Below, piece after piece: positions 4,643 through 39,397 of a stretch of 64,000 nt of DNA; position 1 is the stretch's first letter; the number at the start of each line of letters is the position of its first letter. The position numbers and the translations under genes were made by a program. A model generated the notes under the pieces. The model was not told the origin of the DNA, ran no database searches, and saw only the letters and a list, made by a program, of their open reading frames with translations. Source of the stretch: Thermodesulfobacteriota bacterium (GTDB lineage: Bacteria; Desulfobacterota; Desulfobulbia; Desulfobulbales; SURF-16); the NCBI GenBank assembly GCA_049323935.1, contig JBMONN010000024.1:16926-80925 (forward strand), written 5' to 3'.

Positions 4643-4718
4643 TGCAACTCCTGCCCGTATACCGGGCAACCCTGCTGAAAGATCCCGAAAGGCGACCAGA
4701 GTCGCATCCGCATGCATT

Positions 4719-4824
4719 GTCGAAATTGTAAAAAAAAACCACGATTGCGATGGTCGCTGTATTGTAACGGGTTGTTTTCACTTTCATACCCGCCATGGCT
4801 TGCGTTTTTTTTGCAAGACCGTCC
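4719..4824 (+). repeat. family B hairpin-bearing intergenic element (copy B1, degenerate hairpin)
   Basis: GTCGAAATTGT...ACGATTGCGAT, then TTGTAACGGGTTGTTTTCACTTTCATACCCGCCATGGCTTGCG, then TTGCAAGACC. Flanked by TGCATT at 4713-4718 and 4825-4830. Confidence 0.6.
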
Positions 4825-5075
4825 TGCATTCAATGGCTGAAAAAAGAGAAATAATAGTGTAAAGAGAGGTTGTTGTCATCTACTACTTGCTGGCATCGCG
4901 AAAAGTCTGGATCTCCTTATAATGCTGCGGCGGGATCGCGAAATGCTCGGCGTCCCCTCTGGATACCACCGCTTTCGCGACATCAGCGCGCCTTGGATAT
5001 CAAAACTGTTGCGTACTTGACGAACCAGTACTCTCCACGAGCGCATCACTCCTTGCATCCACAAAAAGGCAGCCC

Positions 5076-6020
5076 GTGACCACCAGCACTCCGAGAGCGC
5101 CGCTCATCATCCTTGTCGGCCCGACCGCCATCGGCAAAACGGAACTCTCCCTGACCCTTGCCGAAGTTTTCGGGTGTGAGATCATCTCCATGGACTCCAT
5201 GCAGATCTACCGTCACATGGATATCGGCACCGCCAAACCGAGTCGGGCCGAGCGGCAACGGGTGGTGCATCATCTGATCGATTATGTTGATCCGGACGAA
5301 CCGTATCACGTTGCCCGTTATACACGGGATGCGGAAGAGGCGATCGCCGGGGTGCGGAGCTGCGGCCGTCTGCCCATGCTGGTGGGGGGGACCGGCCTCT
5401 ATATGAAGGGGTTACTGGAAGGAATCTTTGCCATGCCCGAGGTGCCGGAGGAGATCCGGCAGCTGGTGCAAGCCGAGTTACAGAAAGAGGGAGCGGAAAC
5501 GCTTCACCGCAGACTGCAATCAATCGATCCGGAAAGCGCGGCCAGAATCCATCCCCATGATCCCCAGCGACTGGTTCGGGCCATGGAGGTCTGGCTGGCC
5601 ACCGGGACGCCATGGAGCACCCATCTCAATCGTCAGCAACAGGAAAAGGCTCGGCAGTCGGGCCAAAACCGCACCGTGCGGATCGGGTTGACCATGGAGC
5701 GACAGGAACTGTACACCCGCATCAACCATCGGGTGGGGCTGATGGTGAGCCAGGGACTGCTTGAAGAGGTGGAACGGCTGCTGGCCATGGGTTTTCCCCG
5801 CGAGCTCAACCCTATGCAATCCATTGGGTACCGGCACATGATCAATTTTATCGATCGCCTCTGGTCCTGGGAAAAAACCCTGGAGTTGCTGGCCAGGGAC
5901 ACCCGACGCTACGCCAAGCGTCAGCTTACCTGGTTTGGCCACGACGGTGCCATCAATTGGTTCCGGCCGGACGAAACGAACAAAATCAGAAATTTTATCC
6001 GTCAGGCCTTGGCTTGCTAA
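5076..6020 (+). CDS. miaA: tRNA dimethylallyltransferase
   Basis: P-loop ILVGPTAIGKTELSL, DSMQIYRHMDIGTAKP motif; GTG start. Confidence 0.9.
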   Translation: MTTSTPRAPLIILVGPTAIGKTELSLTLAEVFGCEIISMDSMQIYRHMDIGTAKPSRAERQRVVHHLIDYVDPDEPYHVARYTRDAEEAIAGVRSCGRLPMLVGGTGLYMKGLLEGIFAMPEVPEEIRQLVQAELQKEGAETLHRRLQSIDPESAARIHPHDPQRLVRAMEVWLATGTPWSTHLNRQQQEKARQSGQNRTVRIGLTMERQELYTRINHRVGLMVSQGLLEEVERLLAMGFPRELNPMQSIGYRHMINFIDRLWSWEKTLELLARDTRRYAKRQLTWFGHDGAINWFRPDETNKIRNFIRQALAC

Positions 6021-6062
6021 GACGACATCAGCGATATCTTAACAGAAAAGAGCAATATAACA

Positions 6063-7871
6063 ATGTTTCGTAAGGAAATCGTGCAACGTGTTGAAAATTC
6101 GTCAGCTTTTTCTGAAGCGCGCAAGTACGGTTTTACAGAACTTCAGAGTCGGATCATTGCCGGCCGGGCGACCCGCGCCAATGGCGAACTGAAATCCGTT
6201 CTCTTCCCGACCCTGAACAATCTCCACCACCCGAACAGTCTGGAGGATGGCGCAACTGCGGCCGCCGTCATCGTCGAGGCGATTCTTGAAAAAAAAAGAA
6301 TCGGCATCCTGACAGACTACGACGTGGACGGTATCTGTTCCCACGTCGTCGTCCACGAATCACTGCGCCATTTCGGGGTAAAAACCGACCTGCTGTCAAG
6401 TTTTATCGGACACCGGATGAACGACGGTTACGGCATCAGTCAGAACCTGGCCGATCGTATCCTCACGCAACACCAACAACCCAATCTTATCATCACCGCT
6501 GATTGCGGCTCCTCTGACGAAAAACAGATCAAAAGATTGAAAGAGGCGGGGATGACCGTCATTGTCACCGATCACCATGCCATTCCCGCCGAAGGCATTC
6601 CGGTCTCGGCGGCGGCAACGGTGAACCCGAGTCGCGAGGATTGCCGCTATCCGGACAAGCTCATATCCGGCTGCATGGTCAGCTGGCTGGTGATGTGTCT
6701 CGTTCGAAACGTTCTCAGAGAAAAAAAATATCTCTTTGAAACAGCGAACCAATTGGCAAGTCTTCTTGACTATGTTGCCCTGAGCACGGTGGCGGATGCG
6801 GTTTCCTTTTTCAGCGGCACCAACCGCGCCGTTGTCGTCAGCGGCTTACGGATCATCAACCGCAAAACCAAACCCTCATGGTTTTCATTGGCCTCCCTGC
6901 TTGGCAAAACCGATGATTCTCCCTTTACCGCCGAAGATCTCGCCTTTCAGGTAGCACCTCGCATCAATGCACGGGGCAGAATGGCCGACCCCTATGCAGC
7001 CCTTAATTTTTTTCTTGCCGAGAGTACGGAACAGGCGGAGGCACAGCTGCTTAAGCTCGAAAAGAACAACGAGCAACGCAAGAGCGCGGAAAGAGAAATG
7101 GTGAGAACCGCACGAAAAGAGGCAATGTGTCAGATTCGGTCGGGGCGACGGTCCATCGTCGTCGCTGACGCTGCTTTTCATCCCGGCGTGCAGGGGATAG
7201 TCGCCTCGCGGCTTGTCGATGACTGCGGCCGACCAGCCGTGGTATTGAGTCCTACCAAAGAAAGTGATATCTTGTCCGGATCGGTTCGCTCCGTTCCGGA
7301 GGTGGATGTTCGCAATGTTCTGCAAAAAATCCATGAAAAAAGGCCGGAGCTCTTTCTCTCCTTTGGCGGCCACAGTGGTGCTGCCGGGCTGAAGATTCGC
7401 CTGGAAAAGCTCGCGGAGTTCAGTGCCGCCTTTGAAAAGGTCGTCTGCGATGAAACGGCAGGACGTGTTCTCCGTCCGATCATCACCACTGATGGGCCGT
7501 TGCCGACCCGGGATATGACCTTTGAAACCATCGCTGAGCTACACGCCCTTGAACCCTTTGGCCGAGAGTTCGACGAGCCGGTTTTTGAGGGAATGTTCAC
7601 CGTGAAAAGGATTAGACCGGTGGGAGCCGAGTCGATTCATCTCGCCATGACCCTGGAGGCGAACAATGGCCGCACATTTCACGGGATCTGGTTTCGCGCC
7701 CTGGAGAACGCCGAAGAAGAGGTGTCGATCAAGGGGGGCGAGTTGATCCGCTGCGCCTTCAAGTTAAAAATAAACACCTTTCGCGGCAACACGAATATTC
7801 AGATGATGATCGAATATGCGGAAGCGAGTCAAAGGCTGCAAGGGGACCAGCGGAACAGGGCGGTGCAGTGA
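6063..7871 (+). CDS. recJ: single-stranded-DNA-specific exonuclease RecJ
   Basis: DHH family motifs DYDVDGICS, ITADCGSS, VTDHH, and a DHHA1-like GGHSGAAG. Confidence 0.9.
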   Translation: MFRKEIVQRVENSSAFSEARKYGFTELQSRIIAGRATRANGELKSVLFPTLNNLHHPNSLEDGATAAAVIVEAILEKKRIGILTDYDVDGICSHVVVHESLRHFGVKTDLLSSFIGHRMNDGYGISQNLADRILTQHQQPNLIITADCGSSDEKQIKRLKEAGMTVIVTDHHAIPAEGIPVSAAATVNPSREDCRYPDKLISGCMVSWLVMCLVRNVLREKKYLFETANQLASLLDYVALSTVADAVSFFSGTNRAVVVSGLRIINRKTKPSWFSLASLLGKTDDSPFTAEDLAFQVAPRINARGRMADPYAALNFFLAESTEQAEAQLLKLEKNNEQRKSAEREMVRTARKEAMCQIRSGRRSIVVADAAFHPGVQGIVASRLVDDCGRPAVVLSPTKESDILSGSVRSVPEVDVRNVLQKIHEKRPELFLSFGGHSGAAGLKIRLEKLAEFSAAFEKVVCDETAGRVLRPIITTDGPLPTRDMTFETIAELHALEPFGREFDEPVFEGMFTVKRIRPVGAESIHLAMTLEANNGRTFHGIWFRALENAEEEVSIKGGELIRCAFKLKINTFRGNTNIQMMIEYAEASQRLQGDQRNRAVQ

Positions 7872-8067
7872 TTTTCCCGGTGAAGGCATTCCGGGTAACA
7901 CATTGTTTTTTTTGAATGAAATTAAATTTAACATAATATACATTATGCGACATTTCGATTAGAGGGTTTTCTTTTTGAACGGCTGGTGCTAAATGTTCTA
8001 GATATTTTGTCGCAAGCTATACAGCTCGATCGTTTTTTTTGACAGCATCATCAACGGGAGTCACTTC

Positions 8068-9510
8068 ATGAACAGAGAGATCTATCAGGAACCGCTGGTC
8101 AGTCGTTATACCAGTCGGGAGATGCAGCAGATATTTTCGGAACAGACAAAATTTGCCACCTGGCGGCGCTGCTGGATCGCCCTGGCCGAGGCCCAGCACG
8201 AGCTTGGTCTGTCCCTCGTGACCCAGCCAATGATCGACGAGATGAAACGCTTTGAGACCGACATCAACTTTGATGTTGCCGCCCAAAAGGAAAAAGAAAT
8301 CCGTCACGATGTCATGGCCCATGTTTACGCCTATGGTTGCCAGTGCCCGACAGCTGAGCCGATCATTCATCTCGGCGCCACCTCGCAGTTTGTCGGCTGC
8401 AACACCGATCTTATTCTTCAGCGCCGAGCTCTCAACCTGATCACGAAGGCGCTGCTCAATGTCGTTGCCAACCTGGCCTCCTTCTGCCGGACTCACAAGG
8501 CCCTGGCCACCCTCGGCTACACCCATTATCAGCCTGCCCAGCCCACCACGGTCGGCAAGCGCCACACTCTTTACATTCAGGATCTGCTGATGGATCTTGA
8601 CTACATTGAACACCTGGAGAAGCAGTTCAAGGCCCGGGGAGCCAAGGGAACGGTCGGCACCCAGGCAACCTTTCTCGAACTCTTCAATGGCGACCATGAC
8701 AAAGTTCGTAAACTTGATAAACTTGTCGCCAAAAAGCTTGGATTTAACGATGTTTTTGATGTCACAGGCCAGACTTATACTCGGAAACTTGACATGAAGA
8801 TCGCCGAAACCCTGGCCGGTATTGGCGCGACGGCCCACAAATTCGCGGTGGATTTGCGGCTGCTCTCCAATCTCAAGGTCCAGGAAGAGCCCTTTGCCAG
8901 CGGCCAGGTCGGCAGTTCAGCCATGGCTTACAAGCGCAACCCCATGCGCAGTGAACGGATGACCGGTCTTGCCCGTAAGCTGATGGGCCTGCCTGCGGAT
9001 TTTGCCGCAACCTATGCTAATCAATGGTTTGAGCGAACCCTCGATGACTCGGCCATCCGAAGAATGGATATCCCACAGGCCTTTCTTTTGACCGATGCCA
9101 TACTAAAGCTTTATCTCAATATTACGTCAAAAATGGTTGTTTTTCCGCAACAGATTGCTCGTCATCTTCGAATGGAATTGCCTTTCATGGCCACTGAAAA
9201 AATTCTGATGGCCTCAGTCGAGAAAGGAAAAAGCCGTCAGGAGATGCATGAAATCATTAAAATCCACTCAGTGGCGGCCGGCAGGGTGGTGAAGGAGGAA
9301 GGCAAGGACAACGATCTTCTTCAGCGTCTCGGTGATGATCCGGCCATCCCCTTTACTGTGAAGGAGCTAGAGTCCATGGTGGGCAGCGGCGCTGAATTTG
9401 TCGGCCGGGCACCGGAGCAGACCGAGGAGTTTCTTACGGAAGTCGTTGAGCCGCGCCTTGAACGGTACAAGGCCCTGCTCGGCGCCGGTGATACAGAACT
9501 TTCGGTATGA
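8068..9510 (+). CDS. purB: adenylosuccinate lyase
   Basis: Fumarate lyase superfamily signature GSSAMAYKRNP; length and N-terminus (YQEPLVSRYTSREM) fit long-type PurB. Confidence 0.9.
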   Translation: MNREIYQEPLVSRYTSREMQQIFSEQTKFATWRRCWIALAEAQHELGLSLVTQPMIDEMKRFETDINFDVAAQKEKEIRHDVMAHVYAYGCQCPTAEPIIHLGATSQFVGCNTDLILQRRALNLITKALLNVVANLASFCRTHKALATLGYTHYQPAQPTTVGKRHTLYIQDLLMDLDYIEHLEKQFKARGAKGTVGTQATFLELFNGDHDKVRKLDKLVAKKLGFNDVFDVTGQTYTRKLDMKIAETLAGIGATAHKFAVDLRLLSNLKVQEEPFASGQVGSSAMAYKRNPMRSERMTGLARKLMGLPADFAATYANQWFERTLDDSAIRRMDIPQAFLLTDAILKLYLNITSKMVVFPQQIARHLRMELPFMATEKILMASVEKGKSRQEMHEIIKIHSVAAGRVVKEEGKDNDLLQRLGDDPAIPFTVKELESMVGSGAEFVGRAPEQTEEFLTEVVEPRLERYKALLGAGDTELSV

Positions 9511-9755
9511 CCGTTCCATGGCCGTATGCCGGCGAGATCAGGAAGCTTTATCTCCGCATCTCGCCGCGCCGCATTCACTATCTCAAATTTCTGCTTGAGG
9601 GCTATGACGGCATGGCGATTCTGTCCACCATTGATGCCGGCACCGGGCTCGTCGTCGTCCGTTATCCGGAATGGTTTACCTGTTTTCTTTTCGCCCTGCT
9701 CCGTGACATCGCCCCGTCGCTTTGTTCAGGATCACATGGAGAAGGATTGGGATGA
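9507..9755 (+). CDS. small conserved protein, DUF4911-like
   Basis: 82 aa, RRIHYLKFLLEGYDGMAILSTID motif. ATGA overlap with the purB stop and with the next gene's start. Family assignment is from memory only. Confidence 0.5.
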   Translation: MTVPWPYAGEIRKLYLRISPRRIHYLKFLLEGYDGMAILSTIDAGTGLVVVRYPEWFTCFLFALLRDIAPSLCSGSHGEGLG

Positions 9756-11065
9756 TCACGAAACTGTCTTTTTTTCTGCTGCTCTTCGTTGTCGTCTCCT
9801 GTCCTGCCCTCCTTTGCACCGAAGCTGCTGACAGGATCCCGGCACTGACCCTTGACGACTGCATCGCCGCGGTGCTTGCAGACAACCCTCAAATTGCAGC
9901 CAGTCGCGCCGAACTGGCCCGCCGCCGGGCAGTGGGAAGCGGGGTTCGTAAGGATCTTTACCCGACCCTCTCCGGTCAATATGCTTATCTGCACCAACCG
10001 GATGCCATGATTCTCCCGGGGGAGCAGTTTTCCTACGGTCTGGTGGCCGAGCAACCCCTTTATCGCGGCAGGGCCCTGGTGACCGCAGTGCGGCAGGCCG
10101 ATCTGGCGGTGGAAACCGCAGCCTCAGATCTGGAAGAAATGATCAACTCCCTTGTCTACGAGGCACATCTCCGGTATTATGAACTGTTGCGAACCACCAA
10201 ACAGGCCGAAGAGGCGGCTCAGGCGGTGCTCCGACTTCAGTCCCATGTCCGGGACGCGAGGGCCTTTTACGAGGCCGGTCTCATTCCAAAAAATGACATG
10301 TTGCAGAGTGAGGTTGAGCTTGCCCAGGGAGAACAGGATCTGGTTGACGCCGAAACCCGACTGACCCTGGCCCAAGCACGGCTCAATATACTGATGCAAC
10401 GGCCGGTTGACACCCCTCTGCAGGTGAGTGATCCTGCTGAGGTCTCTTTTCCTGAACCGTCCTGGCAGAATGCCGTCCGCGAAGCCTTGGCCCGGCGACC
10501 TGAGATGAGCCGCGCGGAGCAGGAAATTGTCATGGCAGAGAACGACATCATCCTGAAAAAAGCGCCCTATCTGCCATCAGTTTCCCTGTCCGCCTCTTAT
10601 GAACGTATGGGGGACGAGGTGAGCGGCGCTCCTTACTCCCACGGCCCCCATGAGGTGAAAACCATCAAGGCCATGGCCAGCTGGAAGTTGTGGACCTGGC
10701 GACAGGATCGTGACGAGGTCATCGCCGCGAAAGAAAATCTTACGAAAACAAAAGAGCTGGCAATAACAATCCGCAACGAGGTGACCCTTGACGTCAGAGA
10801 TGCCTTTCTTCGGCTGCAACAGGCGGAAAAGAGAATCGCTGTGACGGAAAAGGCCATCGAACACGCCCGGGAAAATTATCGGATCAACAAGGCGCAGTAT
10901 CAAGTTCAGCTTGCCACTTCCACTGCTGTCCTTGACGCCCAGACCCTGTTGACCCGGGCCATGACCAATTATCACGATGCCCTTTACGATTATCGTCTGG
11001 CAGTGGCGGCGCTGGACAGGGCAAAGGGTGCTTTCGCCACACTCTCAACGACCGAGAATGAATAA
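9752..11065 (+). CDS. TolC family outer membrane efflux protein
   Basis: Signal peptide MITKLSFFLLLFVVVSCPALL. Two repeated coiled alpha/beta halves with the typical TolC heptad patterns (YEAGLIPKNDMLQSEVELAQ..., YRINKAQYQVQLATSTAVLDAQ). Confidence 0.8.
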   Translation: MITKLSFFLLLFVVVSCPALLCTEAADRIPALTLDDCIAAVLADNPQIAASRAELARRRAVGSGVRKDLYPTLSGQYAYLHQPDAMILPGEQFSYGLVAEQPLYRGRALVTAVRQADLAVETAASDLEEMINSLVYEAHLRYYELLRTTKQAEEAAQAVLRLQSHVRDARAFYEAGLIPKNDMLQSEVELAQGEQDLVDAETRLTLAQARLNILMQRPVDTPLQVSDPAEVSFPEPSWQNAVREALARRPEMSRAEQEIVMAENDIILKKAPYLPSVSLSASYERMGDEVSGAPYSHGPHEVKTIKAMASWKLWTWRQDRDEVIAAKENLTKTKELAITIRNEVTLDVRDAFLRLQQAEKRIAVTEKAIEHARENYRINKAQYQVQLATSTAVLDAQTLLTRAMTNYHDALYDYRLAVAALDRAKGAFATLSTTENE

Positions 11066-13099: not shown

Positions 13100-13215
13100 T
13101 TTTTTTTCTCCTCAGGGCACGGAGAACACGGAGCAAATATTCTGAATGACGAAATGACAATCAGTTATCTCCGTAAGCTCTGTGATCTCTGTGGTTGGTT
13201 TTCATTTTTCCTGTC
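13100..13215. repeat. family A inverted-repeat element (copy A2)
   Basis: Arms CAGGGCACGGAGAACACGGAG (13113-13133) and CTCCGTAAGCTCTGTGATCTCTGTGG (13169-13194). The right arm supplies the last codons and the stop of comEA. Confidence 0.6.
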
Positions 13216-13617
13216 GCCAAGCCGGCAATAGCCGATGATCCCGGCCAGCTTGGCCGGCCCGATGCCGGGCACGTCAAGCAGCTCGCTTATCCGGGAATAG
13301 CCATTACGCTTATCCCTGAGGGCGATAATCCGTTGGGAAATGGCGGGACCGATGCCGGGGATAATCTGCAGCAGTTCCGCGTCCGCCTGATTGAGATCGA
13401 TGGGAAGAAAAAAGAGTGGTGCGAACTCCTGCTGTTCGGCGGTTCGGAGCAGATGAGCCGGCGGCAGGTCAGCCGCCGGCGGGGTCTGATCGCGAAAAAA
13501 AAATGAAACCAGGCTGGACAGGACGATCAGCAGACCTGCGCCGAGGAGGACGACGATGCGCTCATCCCTGTCCTGACAGGCTTTTATCTCCTCAGGCCGG
13601 CTGTTTCCGTTTTTCAT
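13165..13617 (-). CDS. comEA: ComEA family helix-hairpin-helix DNA-binding protein
   Basis: N-terminal TM segment, then tandem HhH motifs LLQIIPGIGPAISQRI and LLDVPGIGPAKLAGI. Confidence 0.8.
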   Translation of the reverse strand: MKNGNSRPEEIKACQDRDERIVVLLGAGLLIVLSSLVSFFFRDQTPPAADLPPAHLLRTAEQQEFAPLFFLPIDLNQADAELLQIIPGIGPAISQRIIALRDKRNGYSRISELLDVPGIGPAKLAGIIGYCRLGDRKNENQPQRSQSLRR

Positions 13618-24365: not shown

Positions 24366-24481
24366 CAGAACTTGATGGTCTTGCAACAACCCGCAAGCCG
24401 TGGCAAACGGGAAAGCGAAAACAACGAGTTACAAAAAACGGCCTGTCGGAATCGTCGTTTTTTACGATTCCGACAGAACTT
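24366..24481 (-). repeat. family B element (copy B2)
   Basis: Perfect hairpin GTCGGAATCGT/ACGATTCCGAC (24445-24474), core GTAACTCGTTGTTTTCGCTTTCCCG...GCCACGGCTTGCGGG on the minus strand. Flanked by CAGAACTT at 24366 and 24474. Confidence 0.7.
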
Positions 24482-25039: not shown

Positions 25040-25070
25040 GGCTGTGCTGGTGACGTTACTATCAGAGGAA

Positions 25071-25243
25071 GTGTAACTCGTTGTTTTCGCTTTCCCGCCT
25101 GCCACGGCTTACGGGTTTTTGCGAGAACATCATTTTTGTCGGAATCGTGAAAAAACCACGATTCCGACGGACGCGCATTGTAACTTGTGGTTTTCACTCT
25201 CCCGACCGCCATGGCTTACGGGTTTTGGGAGAGCATCATTTTT
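25071..25243 (+). repeat. family B elements, tandem copies B3a (lacks hairpin) and B3b
   Basis: Core-M-hairpin-core-M arrangement. Perfect 12-bp hairpin GTCGGAATCGTG aaaaaac CACGATTCCGAC at 25138-25168. CATCATTTTT occurs at 25128 and 25234. The apgM stop codon lies in the last motif. Confidence 0.7.
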
Positions 25244-26447
25244 CCAGAACGAATCGGAAAAATTTTTCGCCGTTGGCGAAAAAGAGCGGGGAAGCAGCCC
25301 CGTTTCTCTCACTGAAACCGCCGCTATTTTTCTCCCCCGGATTGCGTGCATCAAACAGGGCAAAGGGAACCGGATCAGCGGTGTGCGTCTTCAGGCTCAG
25401 GGGGGTAAGATGATCCATACATACCACCAGTCGAAAATTTCCTCTACGCCGCATCTCGTCAAGAATGGGGCGAACGATTTTGTCGTCAAAATCCTCGATC
25501 GCTCTGATCTTTTCCTTGAGCAGTCCCTGATGACCGGCCTCGTCTGGCGCCTCAACATGGACAAGGACGAAATCCTTGTCCCGGATCGCGGCAAGCGCCG
25601 CATCGACCTTGCCCTGATAGTTGGTGTCCAGATATCCGGTGGCGCCGGGGACCGAGATAATATCGAGACCGGCATAAACACCGATGCCCTTCAGGAGATC
25701 CACCGCGGAAATAAGGGAACCGCTGATTCCGTAATTCTGCCCAAGGGTGGACATTTTCGGGGCTTTGCCCTGCCCCCAGAGCCAGACACCATTGGCCGGC
25801 GGTTTGCCCACCCTGATCCTCTCCCGGTTAACCGGATGTTTCTGCAGCACCTGTTCCGCTTTTTTCATAAACTCCATCAACAGGGGCTGCAACTCGTATT
25901 TCTTCCAAAAGGCGGTGACATCCTGACCTGTATAGTCATGGGGAGGAACAGTGACGAGTCCGGCCGGGTTGCCTCGGTAGACAAAGAGATGACGGTAGCT
26001 GACCCCTGGATAGAGACTGAATTTTTCGTTGACAACGGCATCATTGATGGCAACAACAAGCTCCCCGGCCTCATCGCTGCTGATATGGCCGCCACTGTAA
26101 TCAACCATAATGACCCGGTCGCCGTCATGACGCAGGGTCACCAGGTTGCAGCGAAAGGCAATCTCGTTTTCCGCAAGCTCCACCCCGAGGCTTGCGGCCT
26201 CCAAGGGAGAACGTCCGGTATAGACATCCTCCGGCCGGTAGCCGAGCAACGACAGATTGGCGACATCGCTGCCGGGTGGGAACCCTTGGGGAACGGTCTG
26301 GATTTGGCCAATTAAGCCATGGTTGGCAACAAAATCCATGGCGGGCGTGCTGGCCGCCTCCAAGGGGGTTTTGTCGCCAAGCGTCTCAAGGGGGAGATCC
26401 CCCATGCCGTCACCGACCAGAATGAGATATTTCATGTTATTCTTCAT
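25236..26447 (-). CDS. cofactor-independent phosphoglycerate mutase family (ApgM-type metalloenzyme); possibly a non-canonical homoserine kinase
   Basis: KYLILVGDGMGD N-terminus, HVEAPDEAGH motif of the alkaline-phosphatase/ApgM superfamily. 11-nt overlap with the hom stop. Confidence 0.75.
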   Translation of the reverse strand: MKNNMKYLILVGDGMGDLPLETLGDKTPLEAASTPAMDFVANHGLIGQIQTVPQGFPPGSDVANLSLLGYRPEDVYTGRSPLEAASLGVELAENEIAFRCNLVTLRHDGDRVIMVDYSGGHISSDEAGELVVAINDAVVNEKFSLYPGVSYRHLFVYRGNPAGLVTVPPHDYTGQDVTAFWKKYELQPLLMEFMKKAEQVLQKHPVNRERIRVGKPPANGVWLWGQGKAPKMSTLGQNYGISGSLISAVDLLKGIGVYAGLDIISVPGATGYLDTNYQGKVDAALAAIRDKDFVLVHVEAPDEAGHQGLLKEKIRAIEDFDDKIVRPILDEMRRRGNFRLVVCMDHLTPLSLKTHTADPVPFALFDARNPGEKNSGGFSERNGAASPLFFANGEKFFRFVLEK

Positions 26448-31613: not shown

Positions 31614-31757
31614 ACTTTGACAAACCCGTAAAAAGTCTTTTTTCACCACAGAGCGCACTGAGATCGCAGAGAAAAAGTATTTAATTACATTCATTTATAT
31701 CTTGGCACTCTGTGGTCTCTGTGGTTAATTTGCATTTTTTACGAGATCATCAACCTT
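31614..31757 (+). repeat. family A element (copy A3)
   Basis: CTTTGACAAACCCGTAAAAAGTCTTTTTTCACCACAGAGCGCACTGAGA...CTCTGTGGTCTCTGTGGTT...TTTTACGAGATCATCAAC. It fills most of the tolB-cpoB gap and is an inverted copy of A4. Confidence 0.7.
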
Positions 31758-31769
31758 AAGAGGTCATCA

Positions 31770-32813
31770 ATGAAGATTCTTTGCACACGCACCTCGTTTT
31801 TTGTTGCGTTGGGTCTCCTCCCCCTGCTGTCCGGCTGTGTGACTGACCAGGATTTTCGCGGTCTTCAGCTTCAGCTCCGCAACCTGGATAACAGAATGGT
31901 TGAAATGGAAAGAGAGTTGAATCATCTGCGCAGTAATGCCGGTTCGTCGGTCGAGGTGATGCGGAAACAGCAGGCCGGCATGGGCAGCACCATCGATCGC
32001 CTGAATTCCGAAATGATGCAGATCAAAGGACAGCTTGATGAATCACGTCACCGCTATCGCAGCCTGCAGGAGGAAAACCAGAAGTTACAGGAAGAGATCA
32101 CCCAGCTTCAGAAAAAAACCGAAGCGCAGGTCGGCGCGCAGCGGATGAGTGTGGTTGAACCTGGAGCGAACGAAATTGATGCCCGCCTCTCTTCCGTCCA
32201 AACCAACCAGGCCGCGATGGAGGAGGAAAAGGCCAGAGAGGCCGCCCTGGCGGCGGAACTGGCGCGGAAAGAGGCTGAACTCGTCCAAAACACTGGACAA
32301 CCCCGCGAAATTTCGGCGGAAAAGAGCAAAAAAGTCCCCGGAAGCGCAGAGTCAGCGGCTGTGGTACCAGCAGCAGACACCCGCACTGCAACCGCCATTC
32401 AACCCAACCAGTCGTCCGGCAAGCCCCAGACCAAGACTTCGGGGAATACCATGTATGATGAGGGACTGGAACTGTTCAAGGCAAAAAAATACAAAGAGGC
32501 ACAGAAGGTCTTTACCGAGTTTGCCCAAAAACATCCGAAGGATGAGCTGGCGATAAGCGCCAGATTCTGGATCGGCGACTGCCTTTTCAATCAGGATGAG
32601 TTTGCCATGGCCATTCTGGAGTACCAGAACGTCATCGCCGACTATCCGAACCACGCCAAGGCGCCGGCTGCCCTCTTCAAGCAAGGAATGGCCTTTGAAA
32701 AACTGCAGGACATCGAGACCGCCAGAATCGTTTATAACAAGATCCTGTCCGAATATCCGAACAGCGACCAGGTCGAACCGGCCAGCAGCAGACTGAAAAA
32801 GTTGGAGGAGTAG
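31770..32813 (+). CDS. cpoB: Tol-Pal system protein CpoB/YbgF homologue, predicted lipoprotein
   Basis: Lipobox LLSGC, coiled-coil N-domain, low-complexity linker, C-terminal TPR (YbgF-type: YDEGLELFKAKKYKEAQKVF..., YPNHAKAPAALFKQGMAFEKL). Confidence 0.75.
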   Translation: MKILCTRTSFFVALGLLPLLSGCVTDQDFRGLQLQLRNLDNRMVEMERELNHLRSNAGSSVEVMRKQQAGMGSTIDRLNSEMMQIKGQLDESRHRYRSLQEENQKLQEEITQLQKKTEAQVGAQRMSVVEPGANEIDARLSSVQTNQAAMEEEKAREAALAAELARKEAELVQNTGQPREISAEKSKKVPGSAESAAVVPAADTRTATAIQPNQSSGKPQTKTSGNTMYDEGLELFKAKKYKEAQKVFTEFAQKHPKDELAISARFWIGDCLFNQDEFAMAILEYQNVIADYPNHAKAPAALFKQGMAFEKLQDIETARIVYNKILSEYPNSDQVEPASSRLKKLEE

Positions 32814-32827
32814 TACCGAGCACCACC

Positions 32828-32990
32828 CTTCGGAATGGCATTTACGATTCCGACAAAAATGATGGTCTCGTAAAACTGAAAATCAACCACAGAGACCGCC
32901 GCAGAGATAACTAATTGTAATAAAAGATGTTTCCTCTGTGTTCTCAGTGCGCTCTGTGGTGAAAAAAGACTTTTTACGAGTTTGTCAAAA
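32828..32990 (-). repeat. composite repeat: family B hairpin remnant + family A element (copy A4)
   Basis: CGGAATGGCATTTACGATTCCGAC, then AAAAATGATGGTCTCGTAAAA, then AACCACAGAGACC...CTCTGTGTTCTCAGTGCGCTCTGTGGTGAAAAAAGACTTTTTACGAGTTTGTCAAA, which is the reverse complement of A3. Confidence 0.7.
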
Positions 32991-33003
32991 ATCAGTGAAA
33001 AGC

Positions 33004-33041
33004 AAAAAAAGGCCGGGAATTATCAATCCCCGGCCTTTTTT
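33004..33041. terminator. bidirectional rho-independent terminator
   Basis: A7 - GGCCGGG (33011-17), 11-nt loop, CCCGGCC (33029-35) - T6, between convergent cpoB and ppsA. Confidence 0.65.
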
Positions 33042-33066
33042 CTTTTTGTCTTCCTAACGGGATGGA

Positions 33067-35517
33067 TCAGGGAGCGATGCCCAGCTCTTTCTCCTTTTCA
33101 TGGACAGCGAGTCGCGTCTTGATCGCCGTGTCGGGGATCAGGCTCATCGAATCAATGCCGCACTCGACCAGGAAGGTGGCAAACTCGGGAAAATCACTGG
33201 GCGCCTGGCCACAGATGCCGATTTTCTTTCCTCGCCTTTTCGCGGTATCGATGACCATGCGCACCATGGTTTTTACCGCGTCATTGCGCTCATCGAAGAT
33301 GTGGGCAATGAGATCCGAGTCACGGTCCAGGCCAAGGGTGAGCTGGGTCAGGTCGTTGGAACCGATGGAGAAGCCGTCGAACACATCGGCAAAGGCATCG
33401 GCGGCAATGACGTTGCTCGGGATCTCGCACATGACGTAGATCTCAAGGCCATTCTCTCCCTGCACCAGGCCGCATTCCTTCATCACCTGGACAACCTTCT
33501 TCCCCTCTTCCGGGGTTCGGCAAAAAGGCACCATCAGCTTGATATTGGTCAGGCCCATGTCATTGCGCGCCTTCAGCAGGGCCTGGCATTCCAATTCAAA
33601 GGCCGGCCGGTATTTCTCGTCATAATAACGGGAAGCACCGCGCCAGCCGATCATCGGGTTGCTCTCCTCCGGCTCATAGAGTTTGCCGCCCACCAGGTTG
33701 GCATACTCGTTACTCTTGAAATCAGAGAGGCGGACGATAACGTCCTTGGGATAAAAACCGGCGCCGATACGGCCGACTCCCTCGGCCAGCTTGTCGATGA
33801 AGAACTGTTTCTTGTCGTTCGGATAAGCAGAGGTTCTTTTCTCGATTTCCGTGACCACTGCGGCGATCTTTGCGTCACCGGCTGCCCGCTTCTTCAGATC
33901 CTCGAAATTATAGAGGGCGAGAGGGTGGATGCCAATATGGGAGTTAATGATGAACTCTTCGCGGGCCAAGCCGACACCTTCATTGGGGATCTGTCCCTCG
34001 GAAAAGGCCTTTTCCGGGATACCGACGTTCATCATGATCTTGGTGCGGGTGGCGGGCACCGAATCGAGATCAAGTCTTTCCACTTCATACTTGAGCAGAC
34101 CCTTGTAGATATAACCGGTTTCACCCTCGGCGCAGCTGATGGTGACGTCAGTACCGGTCTTGATGACCTCGGAACCATTTTCCGTGCCGATAACACAGGG
34201 AATGCCAAGTTCACGGGAGATGATGGCGGCATGGCAGGTCCGGCCGCCACGATTAGTGACAATGGCGCTGGCGATCTTCATGATCGGTTCCCAGTCCGGA
34301 TCGGTCATGTCGGTGACCAGGACCTCGCCCTTCTTGAATTCACCGATGTGGGCGGTATCTTTGATGACATGGGCGACTCCCTGACCAATCTTGGTACCCA
34401 CCGCCTGACCCTCGACAATAACCTCGCCCTTTTCCTTGAGGACATAGGTCTCCATGGTTTTCTTGCATGCCTGAGAATGGACGGTTTCCGGACGGGCCTG
34501 GACGATGTAGAGTTTACCGGTGCCGACCGTGACGCCGTCACCGTCCTTGGCCCACTCGATATCCATTGCCTTGTTGTAATGATCCTCGATGATGCAGGCC
34601 CACCGGGCGAGCTGGAGGATCTCATCGTCATTCAAGACATACATGCCGCGCTCCGCCGGAGTGGTGTCGACGTTTTTCACCGGCGACTGCGCGCCCGGCT
34701 CGGCATTGTAAATCATTTTCATCTCCTTGCTGCCGACCCGCTTACTGACGATGGGTTTCTTCCCCTGGTGGAGGGTAGGCTTGAAAATGTAGTATTCGTC
34801 GGGATTGACCGCACCCTGGACGACGTTCTCCCCCAGACCCCACGCACCGGTGAGAAACACGGCATCCTTGAAACCGCTCTCCGTATCGATGGAGAACATG
34901 ACACCGGAAGAGGCGGAGTCGCTGCGCACCATCTTCTGGACGGTGATGGAGAGATAAACATCGAACTGACCGAATCCCTTGTCATGGCGATAGGAGATGG
35001 CGCGGTTGGTGAAAAGGCTGGCAAAGCATTTCCGGCAGTTCTCAATAAGGTTGTCATAACCGTGGACGTTGAGGTAGGTTTCCTGCTGGCCGGCAAAGGA
35101 GGCATCGGGCAGGTCCTCGGCGGTGGCGGAAGAGCGGACCGCAACATCGACATTCGGGCCGTATTCCGCCTCCATTTTTTTATAGGCTTCGATGATCTCC
35201 TGGCGCAGATCATCGGGAAATTCGGCGTGCCGGATGATGTGGCGCACCTTCTCGCCCCGCTCCGAGAGATTTTTCATATCATGGGTATCAAGATCGGCGA
35301 GCACCTCCCTGATGGCCGCTTCAACCCCGGCTTTCTCAAGAAGATACCGGTAGGCGTAGGCGGTGATGGCAAAACCGTGGGGTACGGCGACCCCCTTGGA
35401 GGTGAGTTTCTGATACATCTCACCAAGAGAGGCGTTCTTTCCGCCGACCATCGGCACGTCTTCGATCCCGATATCATCAAACCAGAGAATAAACGCCTTA
35501 TCGTGACTCTTTCCCAT
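33067..35517 (-). CDS. ppsA: phosphoenolpyruvate synthase
   Basis: 816 aa; N-terminus VPMVGGKNASLGEM, phosphohistidine swivel motif GGRTCHAAIISRELGIPCV, C-terminal PEP-utilising TIM barrel (GSNDLTQLTLGLDRDS). Confidence 0.9.
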   Translation of the reverse strand: MGKSHDKAFILWFDDIGIEDVPMVGGKNASLGEMYQKLTSKGVAVPHGFAITAYAYRYLLEKAGVEAAIREVLADLDTHDMKNLSERGEKVRHIIRHAEFPDDLRQEIIEAYKKMEAEYGPNVDVAVRSSATAEDLPDASFAGQQETYLNVHGYDNLIENCRKCFASLFTNRAISYRHDKGFGQFDVYLSITVQKMVRSDSASSGVMFSIDTESGFKDAVFLTGAWGLGENVVQGAVNPDEYYIFKPTLHQGKKPIVSKRVGSKEMKMIYNAEPGAQSPVKNVDTTPAERGMYVLNDDEILQLARWACIIEDHYNKAMDIEWAKDGDGVTVGTGKLYIVQARPETVHSQACKKTMETYVLKEKGEVIVEGQAVGTKIGQGVAHVIKDTAHIGEFKKGEVLVTDMTDPDWEPIMKIASAIVTNRGGRTCHAAIISRELGIPCVIGTENGSEVIKTGTDVTISCAEGETGYIYKGLLKYEVERLDLDSVPATRTKIMMNVGIPEKAFSEGQIPNEGVGLAREEFIINSHIGIHPLALYNFEDLKKRAAGDAKIAAVVTEIEKRTSAYPNDKKQFFIDKLAEGVGRIGAGFYPKDVIVRLSDFKSNEYANLVGGKLYEPEESNPMIGWRGASRYYDEKYRPAFELECQALLKARNDMGLTNIKLMVPFCRTPEEGKKVVQVMKECGLVQGENGLEIYVMCEIPSNVIAADAFADVFDGFSIGSNDLTQLTLGLDRDSDLIAHIFDERNDAVKTMVRMVIDTAKRRGKKIGICGQAPSDFPEFATFLVECGIDSMSLIPDTAIKTRLAVHEKEKELGIAP

Positions 35518-35645
35518 GTTTTTTACTCCTTAGAAATAATTGACTGAAATAGACACTTCGCTAATGTCGTTCTGACTTTTCCGGAAAAACAGTATGCTTA
35601 CGGCCAAGGAAACTCTCTTTATGTGCGGGACCATCAACCTTTAAC

Positions 35646-35716
35646 AAAATCGTAAAAAGCGACGATTCCGACCCGCCTGCCATGGTTTGCCAGTTTTTGC
35701 GGGAACATCAACTTTT
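35646..35716 (+). repeat. family B element, short variant (copy B5)
   Basis: AAAATCGTAAAAAGCGACGATTCCGAC - CCGCCTGCCATGGTTTGCC - TTGCGGGAACATCAACTTTT. Lacks the GTAACTCGTTGTTTTCAC core. Confidence 0.55.
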
Positions 35717-35933
35717 CCAGGAAAAATTTTGCGCCTTTGGCAAAAGACACTGCGCAGCATTTTCCGAAGAATTACAAAGCGATCTATCCTGCGCACCGGC
35801 CGTTGTTTTTTGCCCCTTCTATATAGCTAATCTCTGGTGCATGGTCAATAAAGAATGTCCTGTCGAGGCTGTTCCGTATGGCGAGAGGATCGACTCCCCT
35901 TCTCCACAATTTTTCAGACAGTTGCGCCGGGTC

Positions 35934-36899
35934 TCAGCCGCGGCTCAACTGCTCAATGCACTCCTGCATGCGGGCAATCAGGTTGTCAAGTTCCGGCTTG
36001 GTTACCTGATCGTCGGCACCCACCGCCTCCCCTTTTCGGCGCAATGCATCGTTGATCATGGAGGAAAAGAGAATAAGAGGAATTTTACGGTACGCCGGAT
36101 CCTTCTTGACCCGCATGCAGAGGTGGTGCCCATCCATCCGCGGCATTTCAATGTCGGAAATGATGGCCAGTATCTTTTTATCCACCTCGCCTTTCCCCCG
36201 CAGTTCCTCCAGAAAGTCGAAGGCCGCCTGGCCGTCCGGTTTTGGAATGACCTTGAACCCCGAACTCTGCAGGGTTTTCGTCAACTGCATGAGCACTACC
36301 CGGGAGTCATCGACAACCAGGACCGACTTATCGTATTTGTCCTCGATTTTCTGCACATCCTCCTCGCGCAGGTGAGACTTGACCACCATGCTCGGATCGA
36401 TGGTGCCGACCAGACGCTCGAAATCAACCATCTGAATAATGAGATTGTCAACCTGACAGATACCGGTAATGCTCTGGCTGGATGCGATCAGATGGGGTGG
36501 GGGCGTGATCTGCGACCACGAAATGCGGTATACCTTGTCAACACCATGGGTAATAAAACCAAATGCCTTGCCGTTTAAATCGGCAACAATCACCACCCAT
36601 TTTCGCTCACCCGGTTTCTGTTCTTCGGTCTGGTAGCCGAACCAGTCACAGAGATCGATGAGGGGGATGGTATGGTTGCGTAACAGAAAAACCCCCCTGA
36701 CACAGGAGACGCTATTGGCCACTCTGGTGATTTCCTCCGGATAGGCGACCAGTTCCCGAACCTTGGCAGCATTAATTCCATAGGTGTTTTTGTGGAGTTT
36801 ACCGGTATCAGGGTCGAGCCATTCGAGATAAAAGGTAATGACCTCAAGTTCGTTGGTGCCGACCTCAAGCAGGATAGAACTTTTGGCTTGCTGGGTCAT
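35934..36899 (-). CDS. cheV: chemotaxis protein CheV (CheW domain + receiver domain)
   Basis: N-terminal CheW-like domain (LLEVGTNELEVITFYLE...), C-terminal REC (VLVVDDSRVV..., SDIEMPRMDG, K at LFSS). ATG 36899 has a GGAGA RBS. Confidence 0.8.
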   Translation of the reverse strand: MTQQAKSSILLEVGTNELEVITFYLEWLDPDTGKLHKNTYGINAAKVRELVAYPEEITRVANSVSCVRGVFLLRNHTIPLIDLCDWFGYQTEEQKPGERKWVVIVADLNGKAFGFITHGVDKVYRISWSQITPPPHLIASSQSITGICQVDNLIIQMVDFERLVGTIDPSMVVKSHLREEDVQKIEDKYDKSVLVVDDSRVVLMQLTKTLQSSGFKVIPKPDGQAAFDFLEELRGKGEVDKKILAIISDIEMPRMDGHHLCMRVKKDPAYRKIPLILFSSMINDALRRKGEAVGADDQVTKPELDNLIARMQECIEQLSRG

Positions 36900-37233
36900 T
36901 GCGTTCTCCATACTGATTACAGGAAAGCCCCGGCGTCGGGATACTCCCGGCTGCCGACGCACATCACCTTTCCCTTGCCTCGCTGCTGCCGGTCGCTCAA
37001 ATCTGTCATGTCGGCGGGAGATGGGAGCAGTGAAACCATTATAGAACATTTCATTTTCAAAATACCAGCGACAAAATACGGATAGTCCCCATGAAGCGGG
37101 GTCTTGTCTTCGCCTCCGTGCTGTGTTAAGTTCATCATACGAGCGTCATCGTGCGAGAAAACAGGCAGCCGTTCGACATTCTCCAGCATCTCTTGGCAGG
37201 CGGTTAACCGGTTTTCCGGATGCTTGCGACGCC

Positions 37234-37349
37234 ATCAACTTTGTCGAAATCGTCAAAAGCCACGATTCCGACGGTCCGTGTTTTGCGACTCATTGTTTTC
37301 ACTTTCCCGCCCGCCATGGTTTGCGGGTTGTTACGAGACGATCAACTTT
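37234..37349 (+). repeat. family B element (copy B6)
   Basis: Hairpin GTCGAAATCGT/ACGATTCCGAC, core ...CATTGTTTTCACTTTCCCGCCCGCCATGGTTTGCGGG, TTACGAGACG. Exact 9-nt ATCAACTTT at 37234 and 37341. Ends 6 nt before the nfu RBS. Confidence 0.7.
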
Positions 37350-37368
37350 CATAAAAGGAGACTTTTCC

Positions 37369-37590
37369 ATGCGGGAAAAAGTTCAGGATGCACTGGATCG
37401 GATCAGGCCGACCCTGCAGAAGGATGGGGGTGACGTGCTGTTGGTCGATGTACTGGAAAATGGCGTGGTCAAGGTACAGCTCACCGGGGCCTGCAAGGGG
37501 TGTCCCATGTCGCAACGCACTCTGAAGGAGGGAATTGAAAAATTTCTCAAATCAGAGGTAGCGGAAGTCAACGCGGTCGAGGCAATTTAG
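37369..37590 (+). CDS. NifU C-terminal domain (Nfu-type Fe-S scaffold) protein
   Basis: 73 aa, IRPTLQKDGGDV...GACKGCPMS CxxC motif. AAGGAG RBS at 37355. Confidence 0.8.
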   Translation: MREKVQDALDRIRPTLQKDGGDVLLVDVLENGVVKVQLTGACKGCPMSQRTLKEGIEKFLKSEVAEVNAVEAI

Positions 37591-37600
37591 CTCACTCTTT

Positions 37601-38068
37601 TTACTTGTGATAACCGCTGCCGCTCTTGATGGAGTATGCGCGGTAAATCTGTTCCAACAACAGCAGCCGGGCCATCTCGTGGGTGAAAGTCATGGCCGAA
37701 AGGCTCAGTACCAGGTCCGCCCTGCGGACAACCGTTTCGGCAAGACCGTGCGGCCCACCGACAAGAAACGCGACAACCTGCCGGCCCTGACTTTCCCAGT
37801 CAGTAAAAAGGGCGGCGAATTCCTCTGACGACAGAAAACGACCGGCTGGATCAAGGGCCACGACAAAAGCCGATTTCCCGCATTTTTCCAACAGGAGACG
37901 ACCCTCACTCTCACGGATCAGCGCCGGCTCCTGTCCTCCCTTTATTTCCCTGACCGTCTTGATTTCCAGCCGGGCATAATGGCTGATCCGTCCGGCAAAA
38001 TCTTCGATCCCGACCCTCAGGTATCCTTCTTTTGTCTTACCCGGGGAGATCACCTCAAGCCGCATCAC
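37601..38068 (-). CDS. rlmH: 23S rRNA (pseudouridine1915-N3)-methyltransferase RlmH
   Basis: 155 aa SPOUT protein, FLVGGPHGL and LSLSAMTFTHEMARLLLLEQIYRA motifs. Confidence 0.85.
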   Translation of the reverse strand: MMRLEVISPGKTKEGYLRVGIEDFAGRISHYARLEIKTVREIKGGQEPALIRESEGRLLLEKCGKSAFVVALDPAGRFLSSEEFAALFTDWESQGRQVVAFLVGGPHGLAETVVRRADLVLSLSAMTFTHEMARLLLLEQIYRAYSIKSGSGYHK

Positions 38069-38454
38069 CGATTTCCCATTTTATCCAGCTCTGCAGAAAA
38101 AATCCGGCAGAACTCTTCGTATCCCAACGAGGCGTTGATCCCCGGGCAGGAGGCGCTGATCGCCAGGAAATTGCCGGAATCGGCTAGAATGCTCGGATGC
38201 AGCGGCCACTGACTGCAGCGCCATGGCTTACCGGGATGAATCGTACAACCGTTCTTAAAAAAAATACAGTGGCCATCGGCAATCTTCATCTGCACGATTC
38301 CGTCGGTGACACGCAGAAATTTTTCCACCACCTCGTGTTCCGGCATACCGAGATACGCTGTCATTCTTTGCAGGTCAGCCTTGTCCAGGGAGACGGTCGT
38401 CTCGCCCTGACAGCAATACCCGCACTGTTTGCAAGCAAAGATGTTTTCTTCCAT
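38065..38454 (-). CDS. YkgJ family cysteine-cluster (zinc/iron-chelating) protein
   Basis: CKQCGYCCQG CxxCxxCC motif. The start is uncertain (38454 or 38487). The stop overlaps the rlmH start. Confidence 0.6.
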   Translation of the reverse strand: MEENIFACKQCGYCCQGETTVSLDKADLQRMTAYLGMPEHEVVEKFLRVTDGIVQMKIADGHCIFFKNGCTIHPGKPWRCSQWPLHPSILADSGNFLAISASCPGINASLGYEEFCRIFSAELDKMGNR

Positions 38455-38497
38455 TTTCCCGAATGTCCCGCTCTTAAAAAAAATCATCAGCAGATGA

Positions 38498-39061
38498 TCA
38501 AGCCCTGCCGATAATTTCACCAAAAATACTGATATCAATGCCGTGTTTGGCGGTGATCTTCTCCCACATCTGTTCCGGATCCGTTGCGAAAATATCCTCA
38601 AAGTCGGCAGGAAGGGTGAGCCAGCCATCAACGGAAAGCTCATTTTCAAGTTGGCCGGGTGCCCAGCCGGAGTAGCCGAGGCAGAAACGGTAGTGGTGCG
38701 GCCCCCGTCCGGCGGCGATGTCGCGAAGGATCAAAGCGTCGCGGGACAGATGCACCTGACTGGTGATTGGAAAGCACTGTCTCGCCCGATAATCACTGGA
38801 GTGCAGAATAAATACCGCCTCGATCTCCACCGGGCCGCCAAAATAAAGTGATGGCAGCAGAATCTCCGGAGTCGGCATGTCCATGCTCTCGTAAAGCGCC
38901 GCCAGCGAGACATCCTCGATGGGATCGTTCAGGACCAGACCCATGGCGCCATCTTCCGCAGTATGGCTGCACAGGTAGATCACCTTGCGGGCAAACCTGG
39001 GATCAGGCATCTGTGGCGTGGCGATGAGAAAATAACCGGTGAGGCTGTCCATGATCGGCAC
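38498..39061 (-). CDS. YqgE/AlgH family protein (UPF0301)
   Basis: LTGYFLIATPQMPDPRFARKVIYLCSHTAEDGAMGLVLN and GYSGWAPGQLENE are family hallmarks. Confidence 0.8.
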   Translation of the reverse strand: MPIMDSLTGYFLIATPQMPDPRFARKVIYLCSHTAEDGAMGLVLNDPIEDVSLAALYESMDMPTPEILLPSLYFGGPVEIEAVFILHSSDYRARQCFPITSQVHLSRDALILRDIAAGRGPHHYRFCLGYSGWAPGQLENELSVDGWLTLPADFEDIFATDPEQMWEKITAKHGIDISIFGEIIGRA

Positions 39062-39287
39062 CGTTCATGCTTTGATGGCGTCGCAAAAGTCGCCAACTGC
39101 TTCGTTGCTGTTACCTTATCTTGTCACTGCGGCGTATCTGAGTACGCCTCATTTTTGACGATTTTTGCTTAGCCATCCCCAAAATTGACTTTTCGCGAGA
39201 TCATCATGCTTCAATGAAATGAATCCAGTACTGTGCAGCTTAGCAGAGCGTGCCGGAGTGTCAAGGAGATATCAGCAGGTGCCCGAA

Positions 39288-39397
39288 ATAATGATGGACT
39301 CGCAAATCCGTAAACCACAGTAGGCGGGAAAGTGAAAACAACGAGTTACAAAACATGGTCCGTCGGAATCGTGACTTTTACGATTCCGACGGATAAT
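39288..39397 (-). repeat. family B element (copy B7)
   Basis: Perfect hairpin CGTCGGAATCGT gactttt ACGATTCCGACG (39361-39391), core on the minus strand. ATAAT at 39288 and 39393. Confidence 0.7.

Follow-up and report, generated by a model that had tools for sequence, protein, structure and literature searches.

The window analysed here, a stretch of 64,000 nucleotides of contig JBMONN010000024.1 from a Thermodesulfobacteriota bacterium, carries among its genes a Tol-Pal cluster, an nfu gene, a phosphoglycerate mutase (apgM-like) gene and, in its right part, a GGDEF gene followed by the ~23-kb region that a first-pass annotation, made from the letters alone, had described as an integrative and conjugative element (ICE). 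That annotation also described a short intergenic element, family B, as a hairpin-bearing unit in at least eight copies built from three modules (the hairpin H, followed by C and M), and interpreted it either as a mobile element resembling repetitive extragenic palindromes (REPs) and miniature transposable elements with inverted repeats (MITEs) or as a structured RNA. Our analysis indicated that family B is very probably a trans-mobilised MITE, that is, a non-autonomous miniature DNA transposon, which has moved recently in uncultured Desulfobulbia. The MITE branch of the earlier interpretation therefore held, and its REP and RNA branches did not. In structure, family B is a MITE in every respect except for an autonomous partner.

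Distribution of family B in the window and in related genomes

From the five full window copies we built an nhmmer profile, and it recovered every locus that had been listed, as five full and three partial copies of an element of ~103 nt. The full matches, at 4713-4829 (+), 24368-24481 (-), 25133-25244 (+), 37236-37349 (+) and 39286-39396 (-), had E values from 1e-30 to 1e-35, and the partial ones lay at 25070-25136 (C-M only), 35645-35716 (short) and 32816-32859 (H only). The hairpin pattern is expected to have no chance matches in the window, and the M motif gave 14 matches, relative to 0.45 expected by chance. The three modules were present as described, all window copies were intergenic, and the profile found nothing significant in the window to the right of 39.4 kb, in agreement with the statement that the 23-kb ICE contained no copies. 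The stem of H was perfect in three window copies (24445-24474, 25138-25168 and 39362-39390) rather than in the four reported; that of the 37243 copy had one mismatch, and that of the 4719 copy was degenerate.

Family B is genome-wide and extends beyond the window. Confinement to the window was one of three findings that the first-pass annotation had named as speaking against its reading, the others being a lack of polymorphic insertion sites among relatives and flanking repeats that belong to a fixed consensus, and none of the three was borne out. A scan for the exact hairpin, covering one genome per species, returned 36 loci, nearly all of them in two uncultured Desulfobulbia/Thermodesulfobacteriota metagenome-assembled genomes (MAGs), Betzabe_MAG078 (JBMONO01) and SRP093185_co1_3 (CAZUZJ01). 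These loci contained 53 nhmmer matches, and a scan with the C module added 18 further loci, only in the same two species, across whose genomes more than 70 copies of family B were found. As the window is ~96% identical to JBMONO010000026.1, it was assigned to that species. In metagenome contigs, the depth of element k-mers was ~90 times the single-copy depth, which suggests, as a rough figure, about a hundred copies per genome-equivalent.

Target-site duplications, empty sites and recent movement

We aligned 46 family B copies together with their flanks. The core was 99-106 nt long (100-103 nt in nearly all copies), with a mean pairwise identity of 86% across the family, and it had no coding capacity, no open reading frame (ORF) being possible within it. 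Outside this core lay short sequences that varied between copies and were repeated on both sides. When the flanks were anchored at GTCGG and CATCA, 31 of the 46 copies had flanks that matched exactly over 5 nt or more, relative to 2.75 expected from permuted flank pairs (maximum 9 in 2000 trials). With the bounds placed at TG...CA, 30 of the 46 carried a duplication that was exact over 4 nt or more, relative to ~6% of permuted pairs, and its length was 4 nt in 16 copies, 5 nt in 11 and 6-7 nt in 3; the base after the duplication was T in 40 of the 46. The first-pass annotation had offered two readings of the flanking direct repeats, as target duplications or as a reiterated end motif. The duplications were copy-specific and far more frequent than under permutation, and these counts, together with the empty sites described below, support the former reading, although the limits of the repeats had been drawn too wide. 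In ATCAACTTT, for example, the extra ATCA closes a resident M-like sequence that matches the element's own end, and the T behind it is, on one side, the base with which the element begins and, on the other, the base preferred at target sites.

Empty sites in relatives, for which a search had been proposed, were found at nfu and at 39.07 kb. Contigs encoding an identical Nfu protein fell into two classes, in which the site upstream of the gene was either filled (the window, L030 and L160-L162) or empty (six assemblies, L155-L159 and L163, including the genome of the CAZUZJ species). The empty site reads ...GGACGC TTACGACGCCATCA ACTT TCACAAAAGGAG, with one M-like sequence and one ACTT, and the empty alleles differ from the filled ones by exactly the 103-nt element and one ACTT. 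The resident M-like sequence stands beside the nfu copy in the window, at 37224-37237, and the 9-nt repeat seen there arose because this sequence was already an M-like end (TTACGACGCCATCA-ACTT-T). A 'permuted insertion' at nfu, with the resident M downstream, was considered and withdrawn, as the actual contig sequences place the resident M upstream; joints based on reads leave adjacent mismatches unreported, and where two similar repeats are present, a joint set on either of them can mimic an exact match. Separately from the MITE insertion, an indel of ~40 nt in the cheV-like/nfu intergenic region (window 37153-37212) distinguishes the window from the empty-site lineage.

The site at 39.07 kb belongs to a third MITE family of the window, family A being the second (Table 1). 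It reads TGCTT-element-TGCTT in the window and is a clean, single TGTTT in CAZUZJ010000016.1, and the same element was also absent from a contig of the X9 lineage. The family A element at 31618 was absent in a lineage of ~93% identity, in three independent metagenomes (X9 joint from 31617 to 31758), and window 32819-32996 was replaced in the X9 lineage. At L029 3885-4135, a family-A-type element was nested inside a family B copy, with TGTT duplicated, an arrangement that acts as an internal control for an empty site.

The Betzabe MAG contained four B copies whose 103-nt cores were 100% identical, although their four loci differed in flanks and duplications. A fifth copy was one change from these, and a second subfamily had two identical copies. 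Identical copies imply a live transposase. The copies nevertheless differ in age. The copy at 4718 was present in all three related lineages (metagenome contigs) and that at 24373 in L013 and in the X9, X12 and X2 contigs, both being common to all lineages examined. The copy at 39292 also occurs in the CAZUZJ species, with a duplication, TTATT, that is exact in CAZUZJ010000016.1, and the nfu copy was restricted to the species of the window.

Terminal repeats, a wider superfamily and the reshaping of copies

Family B extends from 5'-TG to CA-3' between imperfect terminal inverted repeats, and its first base, once it is fitted to the frame of the canonical elements described below, is the T preceding GTCGG. 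The left end, TGTCGGAATCGTAAAAAGCC, matched the reverse complement of the right end, TGATGGTCTCGCAAAAACCC, at 14-15 of 20 positions, and the canonical repeat TGATGGTCTCGTAAAAAGTC at 15 of 20. M is therefore the right terminal repeat, H consists of the left terminal repeat followed by the first 12 nt of that repeat again, internally and in inverted form, and C is a body specific to the family. H further occurs by itself, as a palindrome of 32 nt that has TG...CA ends and is flanked by repeats (L005 5673-5707 and L018 2061-2093), and this solo palindrome may be the superfamily's smallest mobile member. We infer that family B originated by fusion of such a 32-nt H mini-element with a C-M right half.

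A scan with a 17-mer from M, TTTTTRCGRGACCATCA, returned at least 120 loci, which among the matches listed were mostly in MAGs of Desulfobacterales, Syntrophales, Syntrophorhabdus, Desulfuromonadales and Desulfobulbia. For this 17-mer, with two degenerate positions, a few hundred chance matches were estimated in the collection of ~600 Gb, and the few matches in unrelated phyla may be due to chance. Again among the matches listed, to which the following counts also refer, M was typically found as an inverted pair 90-235 nt apart, and such pairs were small elements bounded by TGATGGTCTCGTAAAAAGTC...GACTTTTTACGAGACCATCA. Thirty-nine canonical elements, in which both 17-mers had at most 2 mismatches and stood 90-235 nt apart, came from many Desulfobacterota MAGs. 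Twenty-three of these 39 carried a 4-nt duplication and 3 a 5-nt duplication, relative to 1.5% and 1.1% of permuted pairs (~2.6% for the two lengths together); the base before the duplication was A in 33 of 39, and the base after it was T in 37. Insertion duplicates 4 bp, sometimes 5, at A-NNNN-T sites. Both ends of family B are variants of the 20-bp repeat TGATGGTCTCGTAAAAAGTC, which bounds many MITE families of Desulfobacterota, and family A and the third family of the window have ends of the same kind.

Table 1. Positions of family B copies and of other MITEs in the window
Feature	Position	Strand	Remarks
Family B copy 1, degenerate and old	4718..4824	+	nhmmer E=4e-30; duplication TGCAT 4713-4717 / 4825-4829
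Family B copy 2, 103 nt, perfect 11-bp H	24373..24475	-	duplication AGTTC 24476-24480 / 24368-24372
5'-truncated family B unit, C-M only	25072..25132	+	profile positions 49-115; TTTT spacer (25133-25136) to next copy
Family B copy 3, 102 nt, perfect 12-bp H	25137..25238	+	duplication TTTT 25133-25136 / 25239-25242
Family A MITE, TGACAAACCCGTAAAAAG...TTTTTACGAGATCATCA	31618..31752	+	flanks ACTT and ACCT
Family B left-end remnant (H, 3' arm damaged)	32820..32855	-	TTTT (4 nt) from family A right end
Family A MITE, second copy	32860..32987	-	duplication TTTT on both sides
Chimeric 70-nt deletion derivative	35641..35710	+	duplication ACCT/ACTT 35637-35640 / 35711-35714
Family B copy, 103 nt	37242..37344	+	24 nt upstream of nfu start codon; duplication ACTT 37238-37241 / 37345-37348
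Third MITE family, TGATGGCGTCGCAAAAGTC...TTTTCGCGAGATCATCA	39073..39206	+	duplication TGCTT 39068-39072 / 39207-39211
Family B copy, 100 nt	39292..39391	-	duplication TTATC/TTATT 39392-39396 / 39287-39291

In 15 of the 46 B copies, the end of another superfamily element lay 3-6 nt upstream. Because the elements end in ...TCA, followed by their own 4-nt duplication and usually by T, the flank of a resident element would be a good target, and each insertion would recreate the preferred site ...TCA-NNNN-T... at its own flank. New copies would then land 4-6 nt from resident ends, and such re-use of the flank would give rise to head-to-tail B-B and A-B arrays, in which the spacer is shared as the duplication, as well as to the '1.5-unit' locus and to long apparent direct repeats of the ATCAACTTT kind.

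Recombination clearly reshapes copies after insertion. Three structural alleles were found at 25.1 kb, namely a full copy (X9/X12), C-M only (Betzabe-like) and C-M plus a full copy (the window). The chimera at 35641-35710, beside which a resident solo M-like end lies at 35623-35636, consists of a family-A-type left end fused to the 3' arm of a family B H and to C-M. At the same site CAZUZJ010000016.1 carries a family-A-like element and a full B copy, the pair being flanked by ACTT...ACTT, and the window form differs from this by two deletions, one joining the homologous ATCGTAAAAAG stretches of the left ends and the other internal and 33 nt long. Composite elements may move as units.

The family A elements of the window are ~130-135 nt long, with a CACAGAG-rich body; they have the right-end motif M in common with family B, and form an inverted pair around a gene of the Tol-Pal cluster. 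The possibility that this pair and the ORF between them (31770-32813) make up an insertion sequence (IS) was rejected: the ORF encodes a tetratricopeptide repeat (TPR)/YbgF-like Tol-Pal protein, and the pair is therefore two independent MITEs. Further fragments resembling the family A body (CTCTGTGGTCTCTGTGG...) lie at window 2878-2918 and 13178-13218. A GC-rich hairpin with A- and T-runs, located beside the MITE cluster at 33005-33035 between convergent ybgF-like and phosphoenolpyruvate (PEP)-synthase-like genes, looks like an ordinary bidirectional terminator. Unrelated to family B, at least five tandem repeats of ~22 nt (GGGCATARCRGTCGC-type) with an iteron-like appearance occupy window 47069-47243.

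The mobilising enzyme, alternative explanations and known systems

Termini of the form TG...CA and duplications of 3-5 bp, as in IS3-type transposition, were both present. Members of the IS3 family have TG(A)...(T)CA termini, inverted repeats of 20-40 bp and duplications of 3-5 bp. From the ends and the duplication length, we tentatively suggest that the mobilising enzyme may be a DDE transposase of IS3 type, an assignment to which we give somewhat less than an even chance. The IS21 and IS481 families also have TG ends, with overlapping duplication lengths, and an enzyme of either type is possible. Where a Betzabe contig ends (L030), an IS3-like element (OrfA-like start MRKKRYNYTSAEKVFILK) was separated by 3 nt from a family A end, and it occurred also in L164; its ends are unrelated to M, and it is cut off at the contig ends. 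The synteny of the window with the Betzabe MAG stops at ~39296 (L030 7300-7576), where a family A element, the left end of the IS3-like element and the contig end follow. MAG assemblies usually lose insertion sequences.

Several observations weigh against a trans-mobilised MITE, or against this choice of enzyme. An autonomous element was not found in the ~180 fetched loci examined, the collection scans giving 8-kb loci around exact matches; inverted M pairs 0.5-5 kb apart enclosed housekeeping genes only (~160 fetched loci); no transposase-like ORF recurred near the ends in the loci examined; and six solitary M ends had nothing in common. The terminal repeats of family B itself are only ~70-75% matched, the duplication length is variable (4, 5 and occasionally 6-7 nt), and about one third of the copies have no exact duplication, being either old copies or subject to T-run ambiguity. 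The IS3 assignment draws on the general properties of IS families. All-against-all clustering of the 1622 ORFs in the loci gave only kinases, regulators and ATP-binding cassette (ABC) proteins, and a BLAST search of plasmids gave no match. A further reading, unlikely as a whole, is that the 20-bp end TGATGGTCTCGTAAAAAGTC defines a large superfamily spread over several orders of Desulfobacterota, that its members are moved by a new or domesticated transposase encoded without matching ends, and that the A-NNNN-T rule makes them self-nucleating, which leads to mixed arrays and composites. If this were so, family B, in which an H mini-element is joined to a C-M half, would be one composite formed under that rule, and the A+B pair between ACTT repeats another.

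A structured RNA or cis-regulatory family (a small RNA, terminator or attenuator) that is kept by the host, with dispersal secondary, is very unlikely. In two copies (24477-24442 and 39393-39359), H with GTTTTG/GTTTTTTG is terminator-like and lies just downstream of genes on the same strand, and folding z-scores reached -3.2. However, Rfam gave no match, either at the gathering threshold or with the limit relaxed to E<=1, and the consensus fold of 35 copies consisted of the H hairpin alone, with a covariation term of +0.08. As this set was biased, its loci having been fetched by exact hairpin match, covariation was evaluated again on copies fetched with the C module. At least one non-Watson-Crick pair in H was seen in 18 of these 21 copies, and the 30 changed pairs comprised 20 one-sided mismatches, 9 G-T pairs, 1 two-sided mismatch and no compensated pair, so that the compensatory changes for which a check had been proposed did not appear. 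Once inserted, the hairpin loses its pairing as neutral DNA would. Copies were also evenly oriented with respect to the genes beside them (12/10/9/9 over four classes, from crude gene calls), and presence or absence varied between near-identical strains. When a terminator scan was combined with gene context, two of the five full window copies fitted, and the others faced the wrong way or lay in divergent regions. A sigma-54 or sigma-70 promoter in M or C was considered as well and rejected, the spacing being unfit and the scan showing no enrichment. The free decay of H after insertion likewise argues against a REP or REPIN origin, in which the palindrome would be a REP sequence recognised and spread by a REP-associated tyrosine transposase (RAYT, a domesticated IS200-like Y1 transposase). 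H does have a REP-like size as a perfect palindrome of 11-12 bp, the copies are numerous, intergenic and in both orientations, and solo H units exist. Nevertheless, family B has copy-specific duplications of 4-5 bp where such elements make none, its unit reaches 70 nt past the palindrome to a conserved CA end, and its TG...CA inverted repeats are shared with elements that lack H. A RAYT was not seen in the fetched loci, to which that search was confined, and we consider this origin extremely improbable.

Of even lower probability, to the point of being hardly credible, is a palindrome-associated element derived from IS200/IS605, which would move as a single strand by 'peel and paste', with subterminal hairpins, and insert 3' of a fixed tetra- or pentanucleotide. 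The left-end hairpin and, towards the right end, a weak stem (CCCGC...GCGGG) recall such an organisation, but the right-hand stem showed no covariation, and that family has neither the terminal inverted repeats nor the duplications that are found in family B. It also needs a conserved target abutting the left end, whereas here the 4-5 nt vary and are repeated on the other side, and the empty sites disfavour it further. Recombination or site-specific integration at M, in which M would resemble an attachment site and a circular H-C-M unit would integrate there without transposition, is highly improbable too. Several copies do lie between two M-like sequences (37224/37331, 35623/35697 and 25116/25222), the number of units at 25.1 kb differs between strains, and the chimera at 35641 arose by deletion between homologous ends. 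However, in ~30 of the 46 copies, the majority, the upstream side lacks an M-like sequence, and a 4-5 nt duplication is present all the same; the resident M at nfu matches the upstream copy, the insertion there amounting to precisely the element plus ACTT; and the canonical members insert at unrelated A-NNNN-T sites. Recombination thus reshapes copies later and leaves their dispersal unexplained.

For family B as a trans-mobilised MITE, we infer that effects on the host are incidental, namely a hairpin with a T-tract placed after some genes, a donated stop codon and a longer nfu leader. The copy at 25137 ends in TCA (25236-25238), from which the phosphoglycerate mutase gene on the minus strand takes its TGA stop, and the insertion therefore defines the present C-terminus of that enzyme. 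The nfu insertion adds 107 nt to the leader, and 35 nt separate the stop of the GGDEF gene from the copy at 39292 downstream of it. Insertions in leaders or at 3' ends (of nfu, the GGDEF gene, a thioesterase gene and the phosphoglycerate mutase gene) could alter expression. The assignment also turns about one unexplained repeat per 5 kb of these genomes into an annotated class of mobile DNA, and it provides a diagnostic for related elements across Desulfobacterota MAGs (TG...CA ends, a 20-bp repeat and a 4-bp duplication at A-NNNN-T). Such elements break short-read assemblies, where they are a source of contig ends and mis-joins, and as they differ between strains of 93-97% identity they are useful strain markers.

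Literature text searches, with the end sequences and for MITEs in Deltaproteobacteria/Desulfobacterota, returned nothing relevant, and family B and the wider superfamily appear to be unnamed within the searchable literature, just as the first-pass annotation had recognised no named family. The element is nevertheless of an ordinary kind and unsurprising in principle, and in its way of working it resembles classical bacterial MITEs such as Correia, RUP and ERIC. With REPINs and REP-RAYT systems it shares the character of short, abundant intergenic palindromes. In REPINs, target duplications are absent, as are TG...CA repeats common to elements without a hairpin, and a linked RAYT gene in single copy is required. 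Its TG...CA ends, inverted repeats and duplication length resemble those of the IS3 family (IS407, IS150 and IS3 groups), from which it differs in that no transposase gene bounded by family B ends was found in the loci examined. IS911 and its relatives tend to insert beside sequences that resemble their own ends and to form head-to-tail junctions.

Among small intergenic repeats, RUP of Streptococcus pneumoniae is a MITE of ~107 bp, thought to be moved by an IS630-type transposase, with a TA duplication, and BOX of the same species is composed of boxA, boxB and boxC modules in variable number, without clear terminal repeats or duplications. Family B resembles these, and the enterobacterial ERIC/IRU, in being small and intergenic, and its H, C and M are modular in the manner of BOX. 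However, it has no sequence relation to any of them, and it owes its modularity to fusions and deletions among elements with common ends. The Correia elements (NEMIS) of Neisseria have 26-bp repeats and a TA duplication and can act as terminators, promoters or processing sites. Like them, family B is a non-coding element in the range of ~100-150 bp that has terminal inverted repeats, duplicates a short target, falls into subfamilies, occurs between genes in about a hundred or more copies and would affect the genes nearby incidentally. Unlike them, it duplicates 4-5 variable bp at A-NNNN-T and has unrelated TG...CA ends, and its H includes a further copy of the left end, internal and inverted.

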